Of a stretch of DNA of 64,000 nucleotides, positions 18,424 through 25,994 are shown in pieces. The notes under the pieces are model-generated. The model was given only the letters and a program-made list of their open reading frames with translations, was not told the origin of the DNA and ran no database searches. The first letter of the stretch is position 1. Each line of letters opens with the position of its first letter. This DNA is from Polyangium spumosum (GTDB taxonomy: Bacteria; Myxococcota_A; Polyangia; Polyangiales; Polyangiaceae): assembly GCF_009649845.1 (NCBI RefSeq), contig NZ_WJIE01000009.1, positions 32,685 to 96,684 of the forward strand, written 5' to 3'. The translations under genes and the position numbers were made by a program.

Positions 18424-18487
18424 GCGCACGGCGCGGGGGGAGGCCGTCGCGTTCGGAGGTTGCGCGCGCGCGAGGTGGAGGTCGCGC

Positions 18488-18597
18488 GCGCGAGACCTGG
18501 AGACGCGTGGGCGAGACCTGGAGACGCGTGGGCGAGACCTTCGGGGTTCGTTCGCTCACCTTGGAGACGCCTGGGCGAGACCTGGAGACGCGTGGGC
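18488..18597 (+). repeat. Block of 3-4 direct 22-bp repeats (GGGCGAGACCTGGAGACGCGTG), iteron-like
   Basis: Direct reading. The same block recurs at about 21963 and (single copy) 25255. Confidence 0.85.
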
Positions 18598-18752
18598 GGG
18601 TGGTGAGGCACTTTGCCCCAAAGTGAGGCAGTTTGACGAATACGCGAGCGTGATGCCGTAGGATGGGCTGGCCTGAAAAGGCGCCGCCCCGAAGGTGTAG
18701 CAAGCACCTCCGAGGCGACTTGACGCACCGCCGCATACACGGAGGAACGCCC

Positions 18753-19103
18753 ATGCACGATCTAGACTGGCCCGGCTCGTACGGCCAAGAGAACGATCCG
18801 CCCTGCCCGCCCGAACCTGAGACGCCGCGCCGCCGCAAGTCGGGCGCGCTCATGCTCTCCACGGAGGAAGCGCGCCACGTCCGCGTCGCCGTCCGCAAGC
18901 TCCGCCGCGCCTTCGGGAGCTTCCGCGCGATCTCCGCGATGACCGGGATCCCGGCGAGCACGCTCCGCCGCGCCGCGAACCCGAAGAGTTCGCCCACGGG
19001 CACGCTCGCGATCCGCATCGCGTCCGCCGCTGGCGTCGCGGTCGAGGTCCTTCTCGGCGGCAAGCTCGTCGTGACCACGCCGGTCATCGGGAGGGCAGCA
19101 TGA
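18753..19103 (+). CDS. HTH (XRE/Cro-like) DNA-binding protein of the mobile island
   Basis: GGAGGA RBS 6 nt upstream of the ATG. Helix-turn-helix segment FRAISAMTGIPASTLRRAA. Duplicated at 22209..22565. Confidence 0.7.
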   Translation: MHDLDWPGSYGQENDPPCPPEPETPRRRKSGALMLSTEEARHVRVAVRKLRRAFGSFRAISAMTGIPASTLRRAANPKSSPTGTLAIRIASAAGVAVEVLLGGKLVVTTPVIGRAA

Positions 19104-19351
19104 AGCGCTCCCGTGTGAGGGAACGCGAGCGCCTTCGTGCGCCCGTCGAGACCACCGACCCGGCCGCGCTGGCGGCCTACGCGGGCGAGCTGCGCCCCGT
19201 CGTCGCGAGCCTTCGGGCCCTCGCCGAAGATGCGACCGCGGCGCCGTCGCAGCGCGTCCACGCGCGCTCGTTCCTGCGTCGGGAGTTGCTGCGCGGGATC
19301 CGGGAGCTTGAAGCCCGGATCGACGCCGCTGCGCCCGTGGCGCCCGCCTGA
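19100..19351 (+). CDS. small hypothetical protein (83 aa), translationally coupled to the HTH gene (ATGA overlap)
   Basis: Four-nt overlap with the upstream stop. A near-identical duplicate starts at 22562 with GTG. Helical and Arg-rich. Confidence 0.55.
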   Translation: MKRSRVRERERLRAPVETTDPAALAAYAGELRPVVASLRALAEDATAAPSQRVHARSFLRRELLRGIRELEARIDAAAPVAPA

Positions 19352-19494
19352 TCACACCCACCTCCCGATCCATCGCAGAGTCCGAGGCGGCACAAGAACA
19401 GCCGCGTCACGATGAAGCGGCCTCAGATACGAGACCGGCCTAGCGTCGCTGTGGACATGTCAAGACTTTTCTGATATCCGGGCGTCAAGGAGAC

Positions 19495-20679
19495 TTGACC
19501 ATGAGCGCGGTTGCCAGCGAAGCCACCATCCGCATTGCGTACGATGGAGACGCGCTCCAATCCGGCACCATGGATGTTCGCGACTTGGCGCCAGCATTAT
19601 TGGCGCTGTCGGACCTATTCGACGGAGCCAATAAGGTTCTCAATGGGCCGGACAGAGCAATACAGCTTCGGATACGACACGACGTCAAGCGCGGCTCGTT
19701 CGACGTCGGTATCCAGGTTGTTCAGACGTGGGCATCCAAGATCGTGTCGCTGTTCGCAGGCGACGCGGCATCTAGTGCGGCCAACCTAATCGAAATACTT
19801 GGCTTCGCAATTGGGGCCCCGCTGGGACTTCTTAAGCTAATTAAATGGCTGCGTGGCCGAGCGGTGCAACGGGTAGAGTTGCTGAACGACAACGGGGCGC
19901 GTCTTATCGTAGAGGGCGACGAGATAATTATTTCGCGCCCATTGGCTATGGTCTTCAATGACCTTGGGGTCCGTCGCGCGCTGGCTGCCGTGATGTCGCC
20001 TCTGAATCGGGATGGGATCGACTCGTTCGTGGCCAAGACGGCTGACGGCGTGGTCGTTGAGCAGGTCGCAAAAGACGAACGCGGAGTGTTTAGCCCTCCC
20101 GACGCGGTTGATACCACATCGAAGCCAATCAACATAAGCGAATTTAAGCAGGCATACACCATTGTATCTGTTACGTTCAAAGACGGCAACAAGTGGCGCG
20201 TGTCCGATGGTCAAAGCACCATTGCGGTCACAATCGAAGATGCTGACTTTTTGCGACGCGTAAACAATCACGACGTTAGCTTTGTCAAGGACGACGTGAT
20301 TCGATGCGAAGTCAGGCAAGAGCAGTCGATGACGCCATCTGGGCTGAAGACCGAGGTCTTCGTTAAACGTGTGCTTGAGCATCAGCATACCTATCGACAA
20401 ATGATATTGCCGATGTCTGAAGCGGCAACCGTGCGCCCAGCCCTGCCGCCGGTTGAGCGCGCAATTGGCAGCGGGGATGAAGTGTTGGCTTTCTCGGCGC
20501 CACAATCGAATGAGGAAACGGCCAACGCCCCGTCGGTGGCCAAAGAGGAAACGGCGGTTGCGGTGACGGCTTCGCGGCCACTCGAAACGAACTCGGAAGG
20601 GCCGCGCCACGTCCAGCCCACCGACATTAGTCCGTCAAAGCCCGGTCCGAAGAAGAAGGGTGCTAAGCGGAAACGCTAG
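19495..20679 (+). CDS. hypothetical protein (394 aa), low-GC cargo gene
   Basis: GC about 55% with non-native codon usage versus the flanks. Long ORF with balanced composition. GGAGACTTGACCATG context at the start. Lys-rich C-terminal tail (KPGPKKKGAKRKR). No recognisable family. Confidence 0.65.
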   Translation: MTMSAVASEATIRIAYDGDALQSGTMDVRDLAPALLALSDLFDGANKVLNGPDRAIQLRIRHDVKRGSFDVGIQVVQTWASKIVSLFAGDAASSAANLIEILGFAIGAPLGLLKLIKWLRGRAVQRVELLNDNGARLIVEGDEIIISRPLAMVFNDLGVRRALAAVMSPLNRDGIDSFVAKTADGVVVEQVAKDERGVFSPPDAVDTTSKPINISEFKQAYTIVSVTFKDGNKWRVSDGQSTIAVTIEDADFLRRVNNHDVSFVKDDVIRCEVRQEQSMTPSGLKTEVFVKRVLEHQHTYRQMILPMSEAATVRPALPPVERAIGSGDEVLAFSAPQSNEETANAPSVAKEETAVAVTASRPLETNSEGPRHVQPTDISPSKPGPKKKGAKRKR

Positions 20680-20812
20680 GACATTCAGTGTCCGATCGGA
20701 GCGTCGATTCTCCACGTTTTCGGCCTCTCTCGTGGTACTTTCTACCAGTCAACGGCGACGCGGGGAGGGTGCGACGGGGCGCCCGATAGACCGTCGCCGG
20801 GGCCGGTGCCCG

Positions 20813-24500: not shown

Positions 24501-24779
24501 GGTCCCCTCGCCAGCGCTCCGGCGTCGGACCGCGATCTCGCGGCTTCCGACCCATCGGAGCGGTTCAAGTGATGGGACGAGAATAGCATAACGTGCATGA
24601 ATCGCGCGCACGTTTGTGGCGCAGGTAGGACGCATAATGTCCTACGTCACGCGGTTCCGCGGCGTTCGTCGCGGGCTACGACGTTCCACGTTCGTGCACG
24701 TTTAGCGATTGTTGCACGATTAAAGTGCTTCCCTTGTGCCGTCGCGGGATGGAGCTACGGTGCGGGCTGCTCGCCAAAG

Positions 24780-24816
24780 CGAGAAGGCCGGGGAGCTGCC
24801 AACTCCCCGGCCTTCT
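24780..24816. other. perfect 15-bp-stem inverted repeat (GAGAAGGCCGGGGAG ... CTCCCCGGCCTTCTC) stem-loop
   Basis: Direct reading. No T-tract follows, so it is not a classical intrinsic terminator. It could be a protein-binding or IS-end structure. Confidence 0.4.
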
Positions 24817-24940
24817 CCGTCGCTTTGAGCGACGCGCGACGAAAGCCCTCGCCGCGGTATGCACCCGTGTATTAGCGCAATGCGCGGGCAGTGGGTAGGG
24901 CTTTCGTCGCGACTTCGGACCATTTCGACCGGAGGACGCA

Positions 24941-25141
24941 ATGAAGACGAAGAAGAACGCTCCGCCCCCTGCGAACGACAACGCCGACCAGCCGATGGGG
25001 GAGGGCTCGCCGGACGAGCGCCCGAGCGAGGAGAGAACCGGGCGCCATCCGGATCGACGGCCGAAGTACCCGCTCGTCGATCCGGGTCTCCGCCCGAAGC
25101 CGATCCCCTTCCGGAAGGTCCCTCATGTCCACCGTCGCTGA
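24941..25141 (+). CDS. possible small protein (66 aa)
   Basis: GGAGGACGCAATG: a good RBS spacing. However the product is low-complexity and Pro-rich. Confidence 0.25.
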   Translation: MKTKKNAPPPANDNADQPMGEGSPDERPSEERTGRHPDRRPKYPLVDPGLRPKPIPFRKVPHVHRR

Positions 25142-25254
25142 ACAGGTCGATCGGGCAGGGGCCAGCCCCACCGAGGTAGACCCGGAGGGCCCGCGAAAAA
25201 GTGGGCCCTTTTAGGGCGCGGCGAGCGGGCGGACTGGGGGATTTACCCCACCAC

Positions 25255-25298
25255 CCGTGGGCGAGACCTGGAGACGCGTGCACGAGACCTTGGGGTCT
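25255..25298 (+). repeat. third (single/partial) copy of the 22-bp repeat; right boundary of the island
   Basis: Sequence cccaccacccgtgggcgagacctggagacgcgtgcacgagacc. Confidence 0.75.
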
Positions 25299-25994
25299 GT
25301 CGAAAACCTGCCCTTCACCCTCCGCGCGCCTCGGAGGCGCGTCGTTTGGTGGCAGCGGATGCGTGTCCCCGTCGCCACCGCGGAGCGTGTGCGCGCGTGT
25401 ATCGACGAGCTCGGCGGCGAGCTTGGAACCGGCTATTACACGTTCGACACCACGGTGAAGGTCGACGAAGAGGGCCGCGTGGTGGAGGTGAAGGGCAAAG
25501 GCGTGCCCCATCCGGAGCTCGCGATATGCATGCGGATCGCGTTGCGAAGCATGACGGTCCCGGAAGAGCTCCTTCGGGTGCGCGCGCTACGCGTGCCCGA
25601 GCCGGCCGCGAAAACGAACGGGCAGGCGCCGGACGAGCCTGGGCTCGTCGGCCACCCCGCGGTGGCCGTAATCGTGGCGGTCGCGCTCGCCGACGTCTTC
25701 ATCGAAGTGGGCACGACCGTGATCGTGCTGGCCGCTGCGGTGGAGATGAGCGGGGAGATCGCGAAGACGGTGCGGAAGGAGGACGATGACGACGACGACC
25801 CGTGTCAAAAGCACGTGAACGCTTGCCTGGAAAAGCCGCTGGCGGACAGACCGGGCAGCGTACATGGAGAAACGAGGTGCAGGATGTGCTGGTTGAAGTG
25901 CACGGGGACGAAGACGAAGGAGTGGCCCAAAAAGGTTCGGCTGACGCGCGGCTACGGCTCTTGCGAGTATTGGTTGCCCGGATGGCCGCGGTAG
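25257..25994 (+). pseudogene. 5'-truncated or hybrid copy of the Cys-rich lipoprotein gene (T1); the signal peptide is replaced by repeat-derived sequence
   Basis: Homology to 26583..27308 begins at ...RVPVATAERVRACIDELGG. The N-terminal about 40 aa (MGETWRRVHETLGS...) are encoded by the 22-bp repeat. No signal peptide or lipobox is present. Confidence 0.5.

Follow-up and report, generated by a model that had tools for sequence, protein, structure and literature searches.

Two IS1-like elements with accessory and cargo genes in a tandem repeat array of Polyangium spumosum

In ISfinder/TnPedia, single-ORF or ISMhu11-type members of the IS1 family reach several kb and carry passenger genes. Insertion into REP/BIME repeats has been described for IS1397 and ISKpn1 of the IS3 family and for IS621, ISPpu9, ISPpu10 and ISPa11 of the IS110 family (PMC1525189). 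The families named for such targeting are IS3, IS110, IS4, IS256 and IS5, IS1 not being among them (PMC1525189). The window analysed here, a 64-kb stretch of Polyangium spumosum DNA with a mean GC content of 70%, contains two elements, E1 and E2, which very probably represent independent insertions of different members of one IS1-like family in one short array within a 9.5-kb segment. The features of this region described in an initial annotation are all present, with the corrections given below.

The acquired segment and its repeat array

The lineage-specific segment (18392–27891) lies between a kinase gene, which ends at 18423 upstream of the repeats, and a TetR gene. The entire 9.5 kb is absent from the sister species, and the orthologous kinase–TetR interval lacks the repeat, the HTH gene and the transposase in all three relatives compared, Polyangium sp. 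6x1, P. jinanense and an ENA metagenome contig. Since these intervals are empty, the earlier view of the segment DNA as acquired is right. The island had been placed exactly between the end of the kinase gene and a truncated lipoprotein gene; the flanking genes were correctly named, but the real insert is larger. The lipoprotein-like ORF downstream of the island has a paralogue at 26583–27308, whose signal-peptide portion it lacks; homology between the two begins near 25361.

The repeat GGGCGAGACCTGGAGACGCGTG occurs six times with at most one mismatch, always on the + strand (18488, 18509, 18573, 21965, 22029 and 25259), and no further copy was found in the window, 0.01 being expected by chance. 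Blocks of a 22-bp iteron had been reported here, and multiple direct copies do exist; the true unit, however, is 21 nt, the 22-mers sharing one overlapping G. In each block, a 22-nt insert extends one of the units to 43 nt, and the higher-order period is 85 nt. The left block (18462–18598, + strand) consists of a degenerate lead-in followed by 21-nt units GGCGAGACCTGGAGACGCGTG and one 43-nt unit, its last 8 nt being the left target duplication of E1. The middle block (21962–22054, + strand), comprising the 93 nt between E1 and E2, starts with the right duplication of E1 and ends with the left duplication of E2. The right remnant (25256–25300, + strand) retains a single 21-nt unit and, in degenerate form, one of the 43-nt type (CACGAGACCTTGGGGTCTG...) and includes the right duplication of E2. 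All four duplication copies, located at 18591–18598, 21962–21969, 22047–22054 and 25256–25263, read CGTGGGCG. In-silico excision of E1 and E2, each with one duplication copy, restored an unbroken array of 2.7 copies with an 85-nt period, 96% match and no indels, and the two insertion points, separated by one higher-order period (85 bp), coincide in their base position within the repeat unit. Because the repeats are situated outside the inverted repeats and the 8-bp duplications, they are no part of the elements and, judged by this arrangement of the sequence, can be regarded as shown to be the target DNA of both.

Organization and relatedness of E1 and E2

Element E1 (18599–21961, + strand; 3363 bp) is a complete transposon of the IS1-like type that also carries accessory and cargo genes. 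It is bounded by the inverted repeats GGTGGTGAGGCAC... (left) and GGTAGTGGGGCAT... (right) and flanked at either end by a perfect 8-bp duplication. Its left repeat, IRL (18599–18638, + strand), contains the terminal GGTGGTG and an element-specific motif in two direct copies (GTGAGGCAC and GTGAGGCAG), which are 20 nt apart and each followed by TTTG; the right repeat, IRR (21922–21961, − strand), also contains an inner inverted copy of the GTGAGGCAC motif. A conserved stem-loop in the leader (18683–18719, + strand), with compensatory changes in 7 of 15 predicted pairs in an alignment of 16 sequences, is followed by the invariant CTTGACGCA; the GGAGGA ribosome-binding site already noticed in the initial annotation is present before HTH1. 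The first core gene, HTH1 (18753–19103, + strand), encodes an XRE/Cro-type helix-turn-helix protein of 116 aa with 38 homologues found, which matches Pfam HTH_3 and a PHROG repressor weakly; the best fold matches of its structure model (pLDDT 66) are HipB, C-protein and ClgR, likewise weak (Foldseek E ~0.1–0.5). Small ORF 1 (19100–19351, + strand; 83 aa), a core gene as well, overlaps the HTH1 stop codon by 4 nt (ATGA), its product being helical with a basic N-terminus. The cargo gene (19501–20679, + strand) encodes a protein of 392 aa (392–394 aa) that matches PADLOC PDC-S42 (E 4e-95), NCBIfam NF053583 (LAPAL-motif family, E 7e-76) and phrog_3243, and belongs to the candidate anti-phage family PDC-S42. 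The palindrome TAGGACATTCAGTGTCC (20677–20693, + strand), a candidate operator, is found ~120 nt upstream of tnp1 (20813–21922, + strand), the gene of a single-ORF IS1-like DDE transposase of 369 aa (Pfam PF03400 26.9 bits, GA 24.1; NCBIfam transpos_IS1 62.8 bits).

Element E2 (22055–25255, + strand; 3201 bp) is likewise a complete transposon of this family, differing from E1 in its cargo and in the inverted orientation of tnp. It has the inverted repeats GGTGGTGGGCCTC... and GGTGGTGGGGTAA... (IRR at 25216–25255, − strand) and the perfect 8-bp duplication CGTGGGCG. HTH2 (22209–22565, + strand; 118 aa) is followed, with a GTGA overlap, by small ORF 2 (22562–22807, + strand; 81 aa) and then by the cargo, a 102-aa ORF (22978–23286, + strand) for which searches including Pfam, NCBIfam and PADLOC found no family match and which has a 34%-identical homologue in the equivalent slot of another element (at locus L009). 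The IS1-like DDE transposase tnp2 (23382–24500, − strand; 372 aa; PF03400 35 bits, transpos_IS1 68.8 bits) is preceded by the palindrome TAGGACATTATGCGTCCTA in its own reading direction (24626–24644, − strand). The spacer from the tnp2 promoter region to IRR (24645–25215, no strand) contains two strong hairpins (24781–24817 and ~24832–24910) and a 66-aa ORF (24941–25141) for which no homologue was found. Both transposases score above the gathering score of Pfam DDE_Tnp_IS1 and have transpos_IS1 as best NCBIfam match at 63–69 bits against a cut-off of 100, suggesting a distant membership of the IS1 family. D67, D137 and E203 are invariant in the transposase, and its relatives, more than 1300, are named IS1 family transposase by their sources.

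As described earlier, the two HTH genes are related (89% nucleotide and 86–90% amino acid identity), both are followed by overlapping small genes (82% nucleotide identity), and the cargos are divergent and of lower GC content than the window (57% in E1 and 59% in E2 vs 70%). The transposases had been presented as inverted, IS1-like and ~85% identical; their inversion and IS1 likeness hold, but 81–85% identity is reached only in ungapped nucleotide blocks, the global values being 76% for nucleotides and 75% for amino acids. The IRL-leader regions are 68% identical and the IR motifs differ (GTGAGGCAC vs GTGGGCCTC), the ends having in common ~40-bp imperfect terminal inverted repeats starting with GGT(A/G)GTG. 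Tandem duplication of one module of repeat block and element, by unequal crossing-over between array units with subsequent divergence, would be in line with the 97.8% identity over 93 nt of the array blocks left of E1 and E2 and with the shared position of both elements in the 85-nt period, direct repeats in flanks being good substrates for unequal exchange. This course of events is nevertheless quite improbable: by the identities given above for HTH, small ORF, tnp and IRL-leader and by their IR motifs, the elements are far more diverged than the array, their cargos are unrelated, the orientation of tnp is inverted and an additional 0.75 kb is present in E2. Furthermore, neighbouring elements at L002 are clearly different family members with HTHs only 35–42% identical, and the pair at L023 is oppositely oriented. 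The modules had been rightly seen as related mobile units. Instead of the one composite island or tandemly reduplicated cassette proposed at first, E1 and E2 are distinct family members that have separate ends and duplications; the near-identity of the array blocks would also fit some duplication of blocks or gene conversion.

The inverted IS1-like transposase genes, which flank ~1.5 kb, recall a classical composite transposon, in which two inverted IS1 copies mobilize the HTH genes and cargo between them. That arrangement is extremely unlikely here, as no inverted repeats directly around either tnp delimit small IS copies, each tnp lies in a unit with its own IRL, IRR and duplication, and lone elements of identical architecture occur at L003, L005, L006, L024 and L030. 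Rather than terminating a module, as had been assumed, tnp is the third core gene inside the same transposon.

The transposon family and its targets

Nine more complete relatives from Polyangium and Sorangium, 3.0–5.6 kb being the size range of the family, contain in order IRL, an XRE-type HTH gene, an overlapping ORF of ~80 aa, variable cargo, a DDE transposase gene in either orientation and IRR. Their target duplications are perfect over 8 bp in eight of the nine and match at 7 of 8 positions in the other: CGACCGCG at L002, GGACTCGG at L003, GCTCGTCG at L005, GGTCCATC at L006, GGCCGCCC and GGCCGCCG at L023, CGTGCGCG/CCTGCGCG at L024, TCGCGGAG at L029 and CGATTCTT at L030. Gene order, element ends and an 8-bp duplication by staggered cutting can thus be considered shown for the family, as far as sequence comparison reaches. 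The small ORF is conserved in every element (66–88% identity), and no family or PDB match to it was found in searches including Pfam, NCBIfam and PHROGs. Cargo elsewhere comprises PDC-S13 (L023) and a P63C-domain protein (L024), and the slot may shuttle accessory genes, candidate anti-phage genes included.

Each of the nine elements inspected has a palindrome GGAC(A/G)-N5-TGTCC at the equivalent position before tnp; it is located ~45–60 nt upstream of the likely −10 box and, because of this distance, is not a classic overlapping operator. According to the proposed element plan, an IRL of ~40 bp, made up of GGTRGTG and two element-specific motif copies 20–21 bp apart, would be followed by a structured leader, the XRE-type HTH gene, the ~80-aa gene with its 4-nt overlap, a lower-GC cargo slot, the palindromic operator, a promoter, the single-ORF DDE transposase gene in either orientation and IRR. 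The N-terminal HTH of the transposase would read the variable GTGnnnnnn motifs of its own element ends, while the conserved XRE protein, probably with its small partner, may regulate at the GGACA-N5-TGTCC palindrome before tnp and may also share in target choice.

The initial annotation had instead paired the HTH genes with the repeats, as a plasmid- or phage-like iteron/repressor control region. On this view the 21–22-bp direct repeats would be iterons or operators bound by the adjacent protein, as in modules for replication or immunity of plasmids or phages. Direct repeats two helical turns apart are indeed found, in two copies, immediately upstream of an XRE-type HTH gene, and the fold of its product resembles operator-binding regulators. 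However, the repeats lie outside the mobile ends, arrays carry on beyond the element, adjoining the transposase end, and the 21-nt repeat family of the window runs the opposite way with respect to the HTH gene in P. mundeleinium (L024). Moreover, HTHs 92–94% identical to HTH1 are found beside unrelated flanks, with a different 43-nt repeat at L001 and none at L003; the pairing is therefore refuted, and a control region of this kind is very unlikely. Searches with Pfam, NCBIfam and PHROGs detected no Rep or initiator protein.

About 18 elements at 14 loci (the window, L001, L002, L005, L006, L009, L012, L013, L017, L023, L024, L028, L029 and L032) are inserted in tandem arrays of unrelated sequence and constant period, 21–22 or 43–44 nt (85–86 nt at the higher order), a count subject to sampling bias in that the comparison loci were found through their elements and not through arrays. 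Arrays of this kind account for at most 0.35% of the other 359 kb fetched. The arrays continue on either side of the elements, and the insertion base of the unit is constant within one array family. The window and L024 share the unit position in opposite orientation; the left and right elements at L023 are exactly 43 nt apart and inverted, and neighbours are separated by 44 nt at L002 and by 87 nt at L029. No sequence motif common to the target sites was found. The preference is not absolute, elements outside arrays being present at L003, L016 and L030/L031. It is this occurrence of relatives in other soil myxobacteria almost always in repeats spaced by 21 or 43 bases, but differing in sequence, that makes the target choice unusual. 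The family would seem to prefer a 21.5/43-bp periodicity over a particular sequence, possibly as phased repeated sites or as a coherently bent or structured target.

The arrays might also not be pre-existing, the elements making or propagating them by amplifying their flanks or by carrying units as a travelling landing pad. Such an origin would agree with the absence of the array from the orthologous locus of three relatives, with the scarcity of same-period arrays away from elements and with the equality of array period and spacing of the two IRL motif copies. One period (43 nt, half 21.5) despite unrelated sequences suggests a common generating or selecting machine, and several array families are each found at non-homologous loci in more than one species, in every case together with an element (window and L024; L002 and L023; L001, L005 and L017). 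It is, however, unlikely, given that the arrays lie outside the duplications and reach both sides, that a single element lineage (with GTGTCCTAA ends) occupies four different array families, that a solo family C array, which no element end adjoins, lies at a distance of 2.8 kb from the element at L001, and that clean insertions into non-array DNA occur too (L003, L030). To our knowledge, no DDE mechanism yields 43-bp tandem duplications.

Comparison with known systems

The predicted fold of the XRE-type protein, four helices and a C-terminal β-hairpin, resembles that of HipB-type antitoxins and of the controller (C) proteins of restriction-modification systems, which are likewise small proteins whose genes directly precede, and overlap, a second small gene; within the element there is a palindromic candidate operator as well. 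The similarity in fold and sequence is weak, and no toxin family match was found for the downstream 80-aa protein. With plasmid iterons, the locus shares direct repeats about two helical turns (21–22 bp) apart beside the gene of a DNA-binding protein, but it has no initiator gene, and its repeats are outside the mobile unit, on both sides and in either orientation, and do not co-vary in sequence with the protein.

A fixed position in clustered short extragenic repeats, with several elements per cluster, is a feature in common with REP/BIME-targeting ISs. In contrast to these, one element lineage here uses several unrelated repeat families, which are direct tandem units of constant 21.5/43-nt period and not alternating palindromic units. 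The closest likeness in transposase and ends is to the IS1 family, namely an IS1-profile DDE transposase with DE-W-YVG, TDG and IER-N...FSK motifs, encoded by one long ORF with an N-terminal HTH, GGnnnTG-type ends (here GGTRGTG), an 8-bp target duplication and extra genes within the inverted repeats. The present elements differ from it in their 3.0–5.6 kb with a defined cargo slot and tnp in either orientation, in ~65 residues between the second D and the E, in two additional core genes, for an XRE HTH protein and a ~80-aa partner, kept from Polyangium to Sorangium, and in their strong association with tandem arrays of 21/43-bp period.

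Two IS1-like transposons in one tandem array

The initial annotation described a composite island in which a 22-bp repeat block, a helix-turn-helix (HTH) gene and a small ORF had been duplicated, each module ending with an IS1-like transposase gene. Six copies of the repeat with at most one mismatch are indeed present, all on the plus strand (18488, 18509, 18573, 21965, 22029 and 25259), and no further copy occurs in the 64-kb window, with 0.01 expected. Its period, however, is 21 nt and not 22, as found both by reading the sequence and with Tandem Repeats Finder, the unit being GGCGAGACCTGGAGACGCGTG; in each block a 22-nt insert extends one of the units to 43 nt. 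The units are direct repeats, with hairpins in some of them only, and no exact match to the 21-mer was found in the searched genome collection, which seems to be without P. spumosum.

GGTGGTG lies directly 3′ of each repeat block and CAC(C/T)ACC directly 5′ of the next block, and together they form imperfect terminal inverted repeats (IRL and IRR, left and right) bounding two elements, E1 (18599–21961) and E2 (22055–25255). The octamer CGTGGGCG is found at all four outer flanks (18591–18598, 21962–21969, 22047–22054 and 25256–25263), and in-silico excision of both elements, each with one copy of the octamer, left an array that runs on without a break, showing 2.7 copies of an 85-nt higher-order period at 96% match and without indels. 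Hence the octamers are duplications of the target site, and the repeat blocks represent target DNA outside the modules. The HTH genes, the overlapping small ORFs, two differing cargos of lower GC content and two inverted IS1-like transposase genes (tnp1 and tnp2) are all present as annotated, but they do not form a composite island: each element has its own ends and its own duplication, and two complete IS copies bracketing a cargo, as in a composite transposon, were not found, no pair of inverted repeats bounding tnp1 or tnp2 alone. A small IS nested around tnp2 was considered as well; the GGTAGTC-like sequence 40 nt past the tnp2 stop codon (23342) has no counterpart in other elements with an inverted transposase gene, and the nested reading was therefore dropped. 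The region is real acquired mobile DNA, consisting of two members of a three-gene IS1-like transposon family in the same phase of one tandem array. We know of no earlier characterisation of such a family.

The repeats had also been read, together with the HTH genes, as an iteron/repressor control region, a reading that fails because the window repeats lie beyond both the inverted repeats and the target duplications. In relatives, an HTH protein 94% identical to that of E1 (HTH1, XRE-type) adjoins a 43-nt repeat of wholly different sequence (locus L001), and one 92% identical has no repeat at all (L003). At locus L024 of P. mundeleinium, CACGCGTCTCCAAGTCTCGTG, which is the window unit in reverse complement, forms an array of 16 units; the element there, with a different inverted-repeat type, sits at the same unit position as in the window, in the opposite orientation and between non-homologous genes. 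Furthermore, arrays go on past the transposase end of the elements, and no Rep-like or other replication initiator family was detected in Pfam, NCBIfam or PHROGs. A repeat specific to, or co-varying with, the adjacent HTH protein was likewise rejected, since HTH proteins of 92–94% identity stand beside unrelated flanks and the L024 repeat is inverted relative to its HTH gene. The apparent plasmid-like control cassette is thus a pair of transposons in a target array, and such repeats should not be called iterons in annotation.

Acquisition agrees with the comparison to orthologous empty sites. The preceding kinase gene has orthologues of 89–92% identity in Polyangium sp. 6x1, P. jinanense and an ENA contig, all three without the array at this locus; synteny with them holds to 18391 and resumes at 27892, at a TetR gene, and the window therefore has 9.5 kb of lineage-specific DNA (18392–27891), comprising the array, E1, E2 and two tandem gene pairs. 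The kinase–TetR interval measures only about 0.6 kb in Polyangium sp. 6x1 (L026, 13818–14433, one convergent gene of 153 aa), and in P. jinanense it holds a 7.7-kb insert of different genes (L025, 13810–21534), so that it is a variable hotspot. The two gene pairs (25256–27891), none of whose genes has a Pfam match, encode lipoprotein-like proteins of 245 and 241 aa, followed by proteins of 194 and 187 aa, respectively. The lipoprotein gene annotated as truncated, the first of the two copies, does lack the signal-peptide region, homology to the second copy starting at about 25361; an IS-mediated deletion is one conceivable cause. The insert extends beyond this gene to 27891. Elsewhere in the window, two paralogous Ser/Thr kinase genes (7468–11238 and 14506–18423; about 1270–1305 aa, about 70% nucleotide identity) enclose three genes of about 278 aa with in-frame tandem repeats of 15/45 nt (11647–11746, 12679–12766 and 13650–13720), an arrangement kept in three relatives. 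Long GGC-rich tandem repeats with periods of 9, 18, 27, 30 and 45 nt occur at 54960–55300 and 57478–57600 and presumably encode Gly-rich repeat proteins.

A transposon family with a cargo slot

Relatives were gathered through 38 proteins homologous to the HTH, encoded in Polyangium species and metagenomes; the HTH alignment gave 11 genomic and 11 metagenomic loci, and more loci were added through individual proteins. Besides E1 and E2, nine elements were found with both ends: L002 (4608 bp, target duplication CGACCGCG), L003 (3158 bp, GGACTCGG), L005 (3015 bp, GCTCGTCG), L006 (3052 bp, GGTCCATC), the right and left elements of L023 (3905 bp, GGCCGCCC, and 3174 bp, GGCCGCCG), L024 (3372 bp, CGTGCGCG/CCTGCGCG), L029 from Sorangium (5632 bp, TCGCGGAG) and L030 (3340 bp, CGATTCTT). 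Of the 11 complete elements, 10 have a perfect 8-bp duplication, and in the remaining one seven of eight bases match. All of them, including the four ends in the window, terminate in GGTGGTG or GGTAGTG. In the family, the IRL consists of GGTRGTG and, after it, an element-specific motif that occurs twice in direct orientation, 20–21 nt apart; a leader of 145–155 nt, mostly 154 nt, separates the IRL from the start codon. The leader contains a predicted stem-loop with compensatory changes at 7 of 15 pairs; Rfam gave no credible match within 18300–25500, and a consensus promoter and terminator scan of the element control regions returned nothing above shuffled background.

The gene order comprises the HTH gene, a conserved ORF of about 80 aa with a 4-nt overlap at the HTH stop, a lower-GC cargo that varies between elements, and the transposase gene, which may stand in either orientation. 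The Sorangium element follows the same plan, with an HTH protein just 35% and a transposase 60% identical to those of the window, and the HTH gene and small ORF are therefore core genes and not passengers. A coherent three-gene IS1-related family with a cargo slot is thus defined in Polyangium and Sorangium. About 110–130 nt upstream of the transposase gene, all nine elements inspected carry the palindrome GGAC(A/G)-N5-TGTCC, in its longer form TAGGAC(A/G)-N5-TGTCC(TA); it lies at 20677–20693 and 24626–24644 in the window, and in the same place in L002–L006, L023 and L024. Elements with an inverted transposase gene have a second copy 80–90 nt further upstream, and in the inverted-repeat lineage GTGTCCTAA the half-site of the palindrome is identical to the terminal inverted-repeat motif. 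Other contigs of P. spumosum encode at least three more HTH paralogues (P0002, P0003 and P0012 among the listed proteins) and at least five more transposase paralogues, at most 75% identical to the tnp1 product (P0159, P0169, P0187, P0189 and P0217 are listed); the copies in this genome are a diversified family of old, distinct members and not a recent burst.

The transposases are encoded by single ORFs of 369–372 aa in elements of 3.0–5.6 kb. On Pfam PF03400 (DDE_Tnp_IS1; gathering score 24.1) the tnp1 and tnp2 products score 26.9 and 35.0 bits, respectively. Among NCBIfam transposase models IS1 ranks first (E 4e-17 and 6e-19), with 63–69 bits, which is below the cut-off of 100. Residues D67, D137 and E203 are invariant across ten family members, and more than 1300 relatives were found at E < 1e-20, many of which NCBI and JGI label as IS1 family transposases. 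The HTH protein has weak sequence matches to HTH_3 and phage repressor PHROGs; its AlphaFold model (mean pLDDT 66, core near 80) has four helices and a beta hairpin, and its top PDB hits, at weak E-values, are without exception regulators of the XRE family (ClgR, HipB, C-proteins, DdrO). The small ORF matched nothing in Pfam, NCBIfam, PHROGs, PADLOC or PDB. Two roles were considered and rejected: binding of the inverted repeats by the HTH protein, as the inverted-repeat motifs fall into at least seven groups while the HTH proteins stay 80–94% identical, and RNA-guided targeting through the conserved leader hairpin, because the hairpins of L013 and the right element of L023 are nearly alike despite different targets.

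Homologues of the HTH/small-ORF pair also occur in an island of about 9.3 kb in P. fumosum (L008, 2290–12032), which is without an IS1-like transposase, has 14-bp inverted repeats (GGCTTTGCCCTAGA) at 2475 and 11814, and contains NYN, HTH_3, DDE_Tnp_1+SWIM and PolB-type exonuclease genes. Islands of this type were compared to see whether the HTH/small-ORF pair might be the common denominator of array insertion: a 43-nt array lies on both sides of the L008 island, and the related L018 island is not in an array. The trio of exonuclease, HTH and small ORF is also present in L010 and L020.

The cargo of E1 matches PADLOC PDC-S42 (PDLC05015) with an E-value of 4.1e-95 over protein residues 6–305 and profile positions 2–300 of 302, and the NCBIfam model LAPAL_fam with 255 bits (cut-off 60). 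On these profile matches it is a full-length member of the candidate defence family PDC-S42, the LAPAL family of NCBIfam. In the right element of L023 the slot encodes a PDC-S13 member (10713–11606; PADLOC, E 2e-61), and in L024 a P63C-domain protein (10768–11802). The 102-aa cargo of E2 and a 66-aa ORF had no family match in Pfam, NCBIfam, PADLOC, PDB or PHROGs searches, nor had the other cargos in the elements examined. These data suggest that the slot often holds phage-related or candidate defence genes, and since it sometimes carries PDC-S42 and PDC-S13 genes, the family is a possible route for shuffling them.

Tandem arrays as insertion targets

Elements abut or interrupt arrays in pairs in the window, L002, L023 and L029, and singly in L001, L005, L006, L009, L012, L013, L017, L024, L028 and L032. 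The unit sequences of different array families are unrelated, and the period is always 21–22, 43–44 or 85–86 nt. Three of the array families are each shared by loci that are non-homologous or belong to different species (the window and L024; L002 and L023; L001, L005 and L017), and elements in one array family have entered the unit at an identical base, whichever way they face (window/L024, L002/L023 and L001/L005). Neighbouring elements are spaced by one or two periods (43, 44, 85 and 87 nt). The GTGTCCTAA lineage is present in four array families, so the inverted-repeat specificity of an element does not set its target sequence. Away from element ends, arrays of such periods occupy no more than 0.35% of the fetched sequence (359 kb), and several of these are coding repeats or adjoin related islands. 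The association is not explicable by chance.

L003 and L016 are exceptions with no array. Also exceptional, a member in a phage-like region of lower GC content with Baseplate_J and many small ORFs (L030, 5849–9188 of a 61.6-kb JGI contig, and L031) is inserted in the 3′ arm of a palindrome with a 9-bp stem, CAAGAATCG-N9-CGATTCTTG, with duplication of CGATTCTT. Neither a common target motif nor a constant hairpin offset was found across the array families. In L017 (5364–7688) an element is cut off inside its transposase gene, and a 25-nt direct repeat from the surrounding array, AACCGCAGCGAGCCTGTCGACATGA, flanks the junction of the deletion, an arrangement that suggests recombination between array units.

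Two origins of the arrays may be weighed. Arrays that existed before insertion are consistent with their extension to both sides of the elements, with a solo array of family C in L001 (6919–7015) and with clean insertions into non-array DNA. A link of the arrays to the elements themselves is favoured by the three relatives without array at the orthologous locus, by a constant period equal to the spacing of the two IRL motifs and by the finding of every recurring array family with an element. A possible, if doubtful, reading is twofold: the family would pick its targets by a tandem periodicity of about 21.5/43 bp in fixed phase and not by sequence, or it would make or spread arrays as landing pads. 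Periodicity might be recognised by cooperative phased binding of the HTH and small proteins, or by spare DNA-binding domains of the transposase, whose putative own sites in the IRL (motif GTGAGGCAC) lie 20–21 bp apart.

If periodicity is recognised, it would represent a new principle of target selection, exploitable for site-directed insertion into designed arrays. Either recognition or array-making would be a way of choosing targets that has not been described among DDE transposons, and the family would be a vehicle by which variable cargo, candidate anti-phage genes among it, is concentrated at array hotspots of the very large Polyangiaceae genomes. The association with 21/43-bp periods, near-constant despite unrelated sequences, is the part worth following up and poses a testable question of mechanism.

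Relation to known systems

Members of the IS1 family have GGnnnTG ends and 8–9-bp duplications, and include long single-ORF variants with passenger genes. The present family shares with them a DDE transposase homologous to IS1 InsB, GGnnnTG-type ends and the 8-bp duplication, and differs from classical IS1 (insA and insB, −1 frameshift, 0.7–1.2 kb) in its single ORF and its length of 3.0–5.6 kb. Its organisation presumably fits only the atypical single-ORF or ISMhu11-like IS1 subgroups of ISfinder; a literature search on ISMhu11, PDC-S42 and Sorangium IS1 elements gave nothing specific. As to a type II toxin-antitoxin pair, the HipB fold match of the HTH protein is weak and the small ORF matches no toxin family. 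Unlike in an iteron-controlled replicon, the window repeats are not in the same genetic unit as the HTH gene, and an initiator is absent.

ISs targeting REP sequences are known from the IS3, IS110, IS4, IS256 and IS5 families, IS1 not being among them (PMC1525189). Their REP/BIME targets are highly abundant palindromic repeats found genome-wide in more than 100 copies per genome (PMC2817692). The present family resembles these ISs in the constant insertion position within a repeated extragenic unit; whereas their targets are sequence-specific palindromic units, those of the present family are arrays of direct repeats of unrelated sequence.
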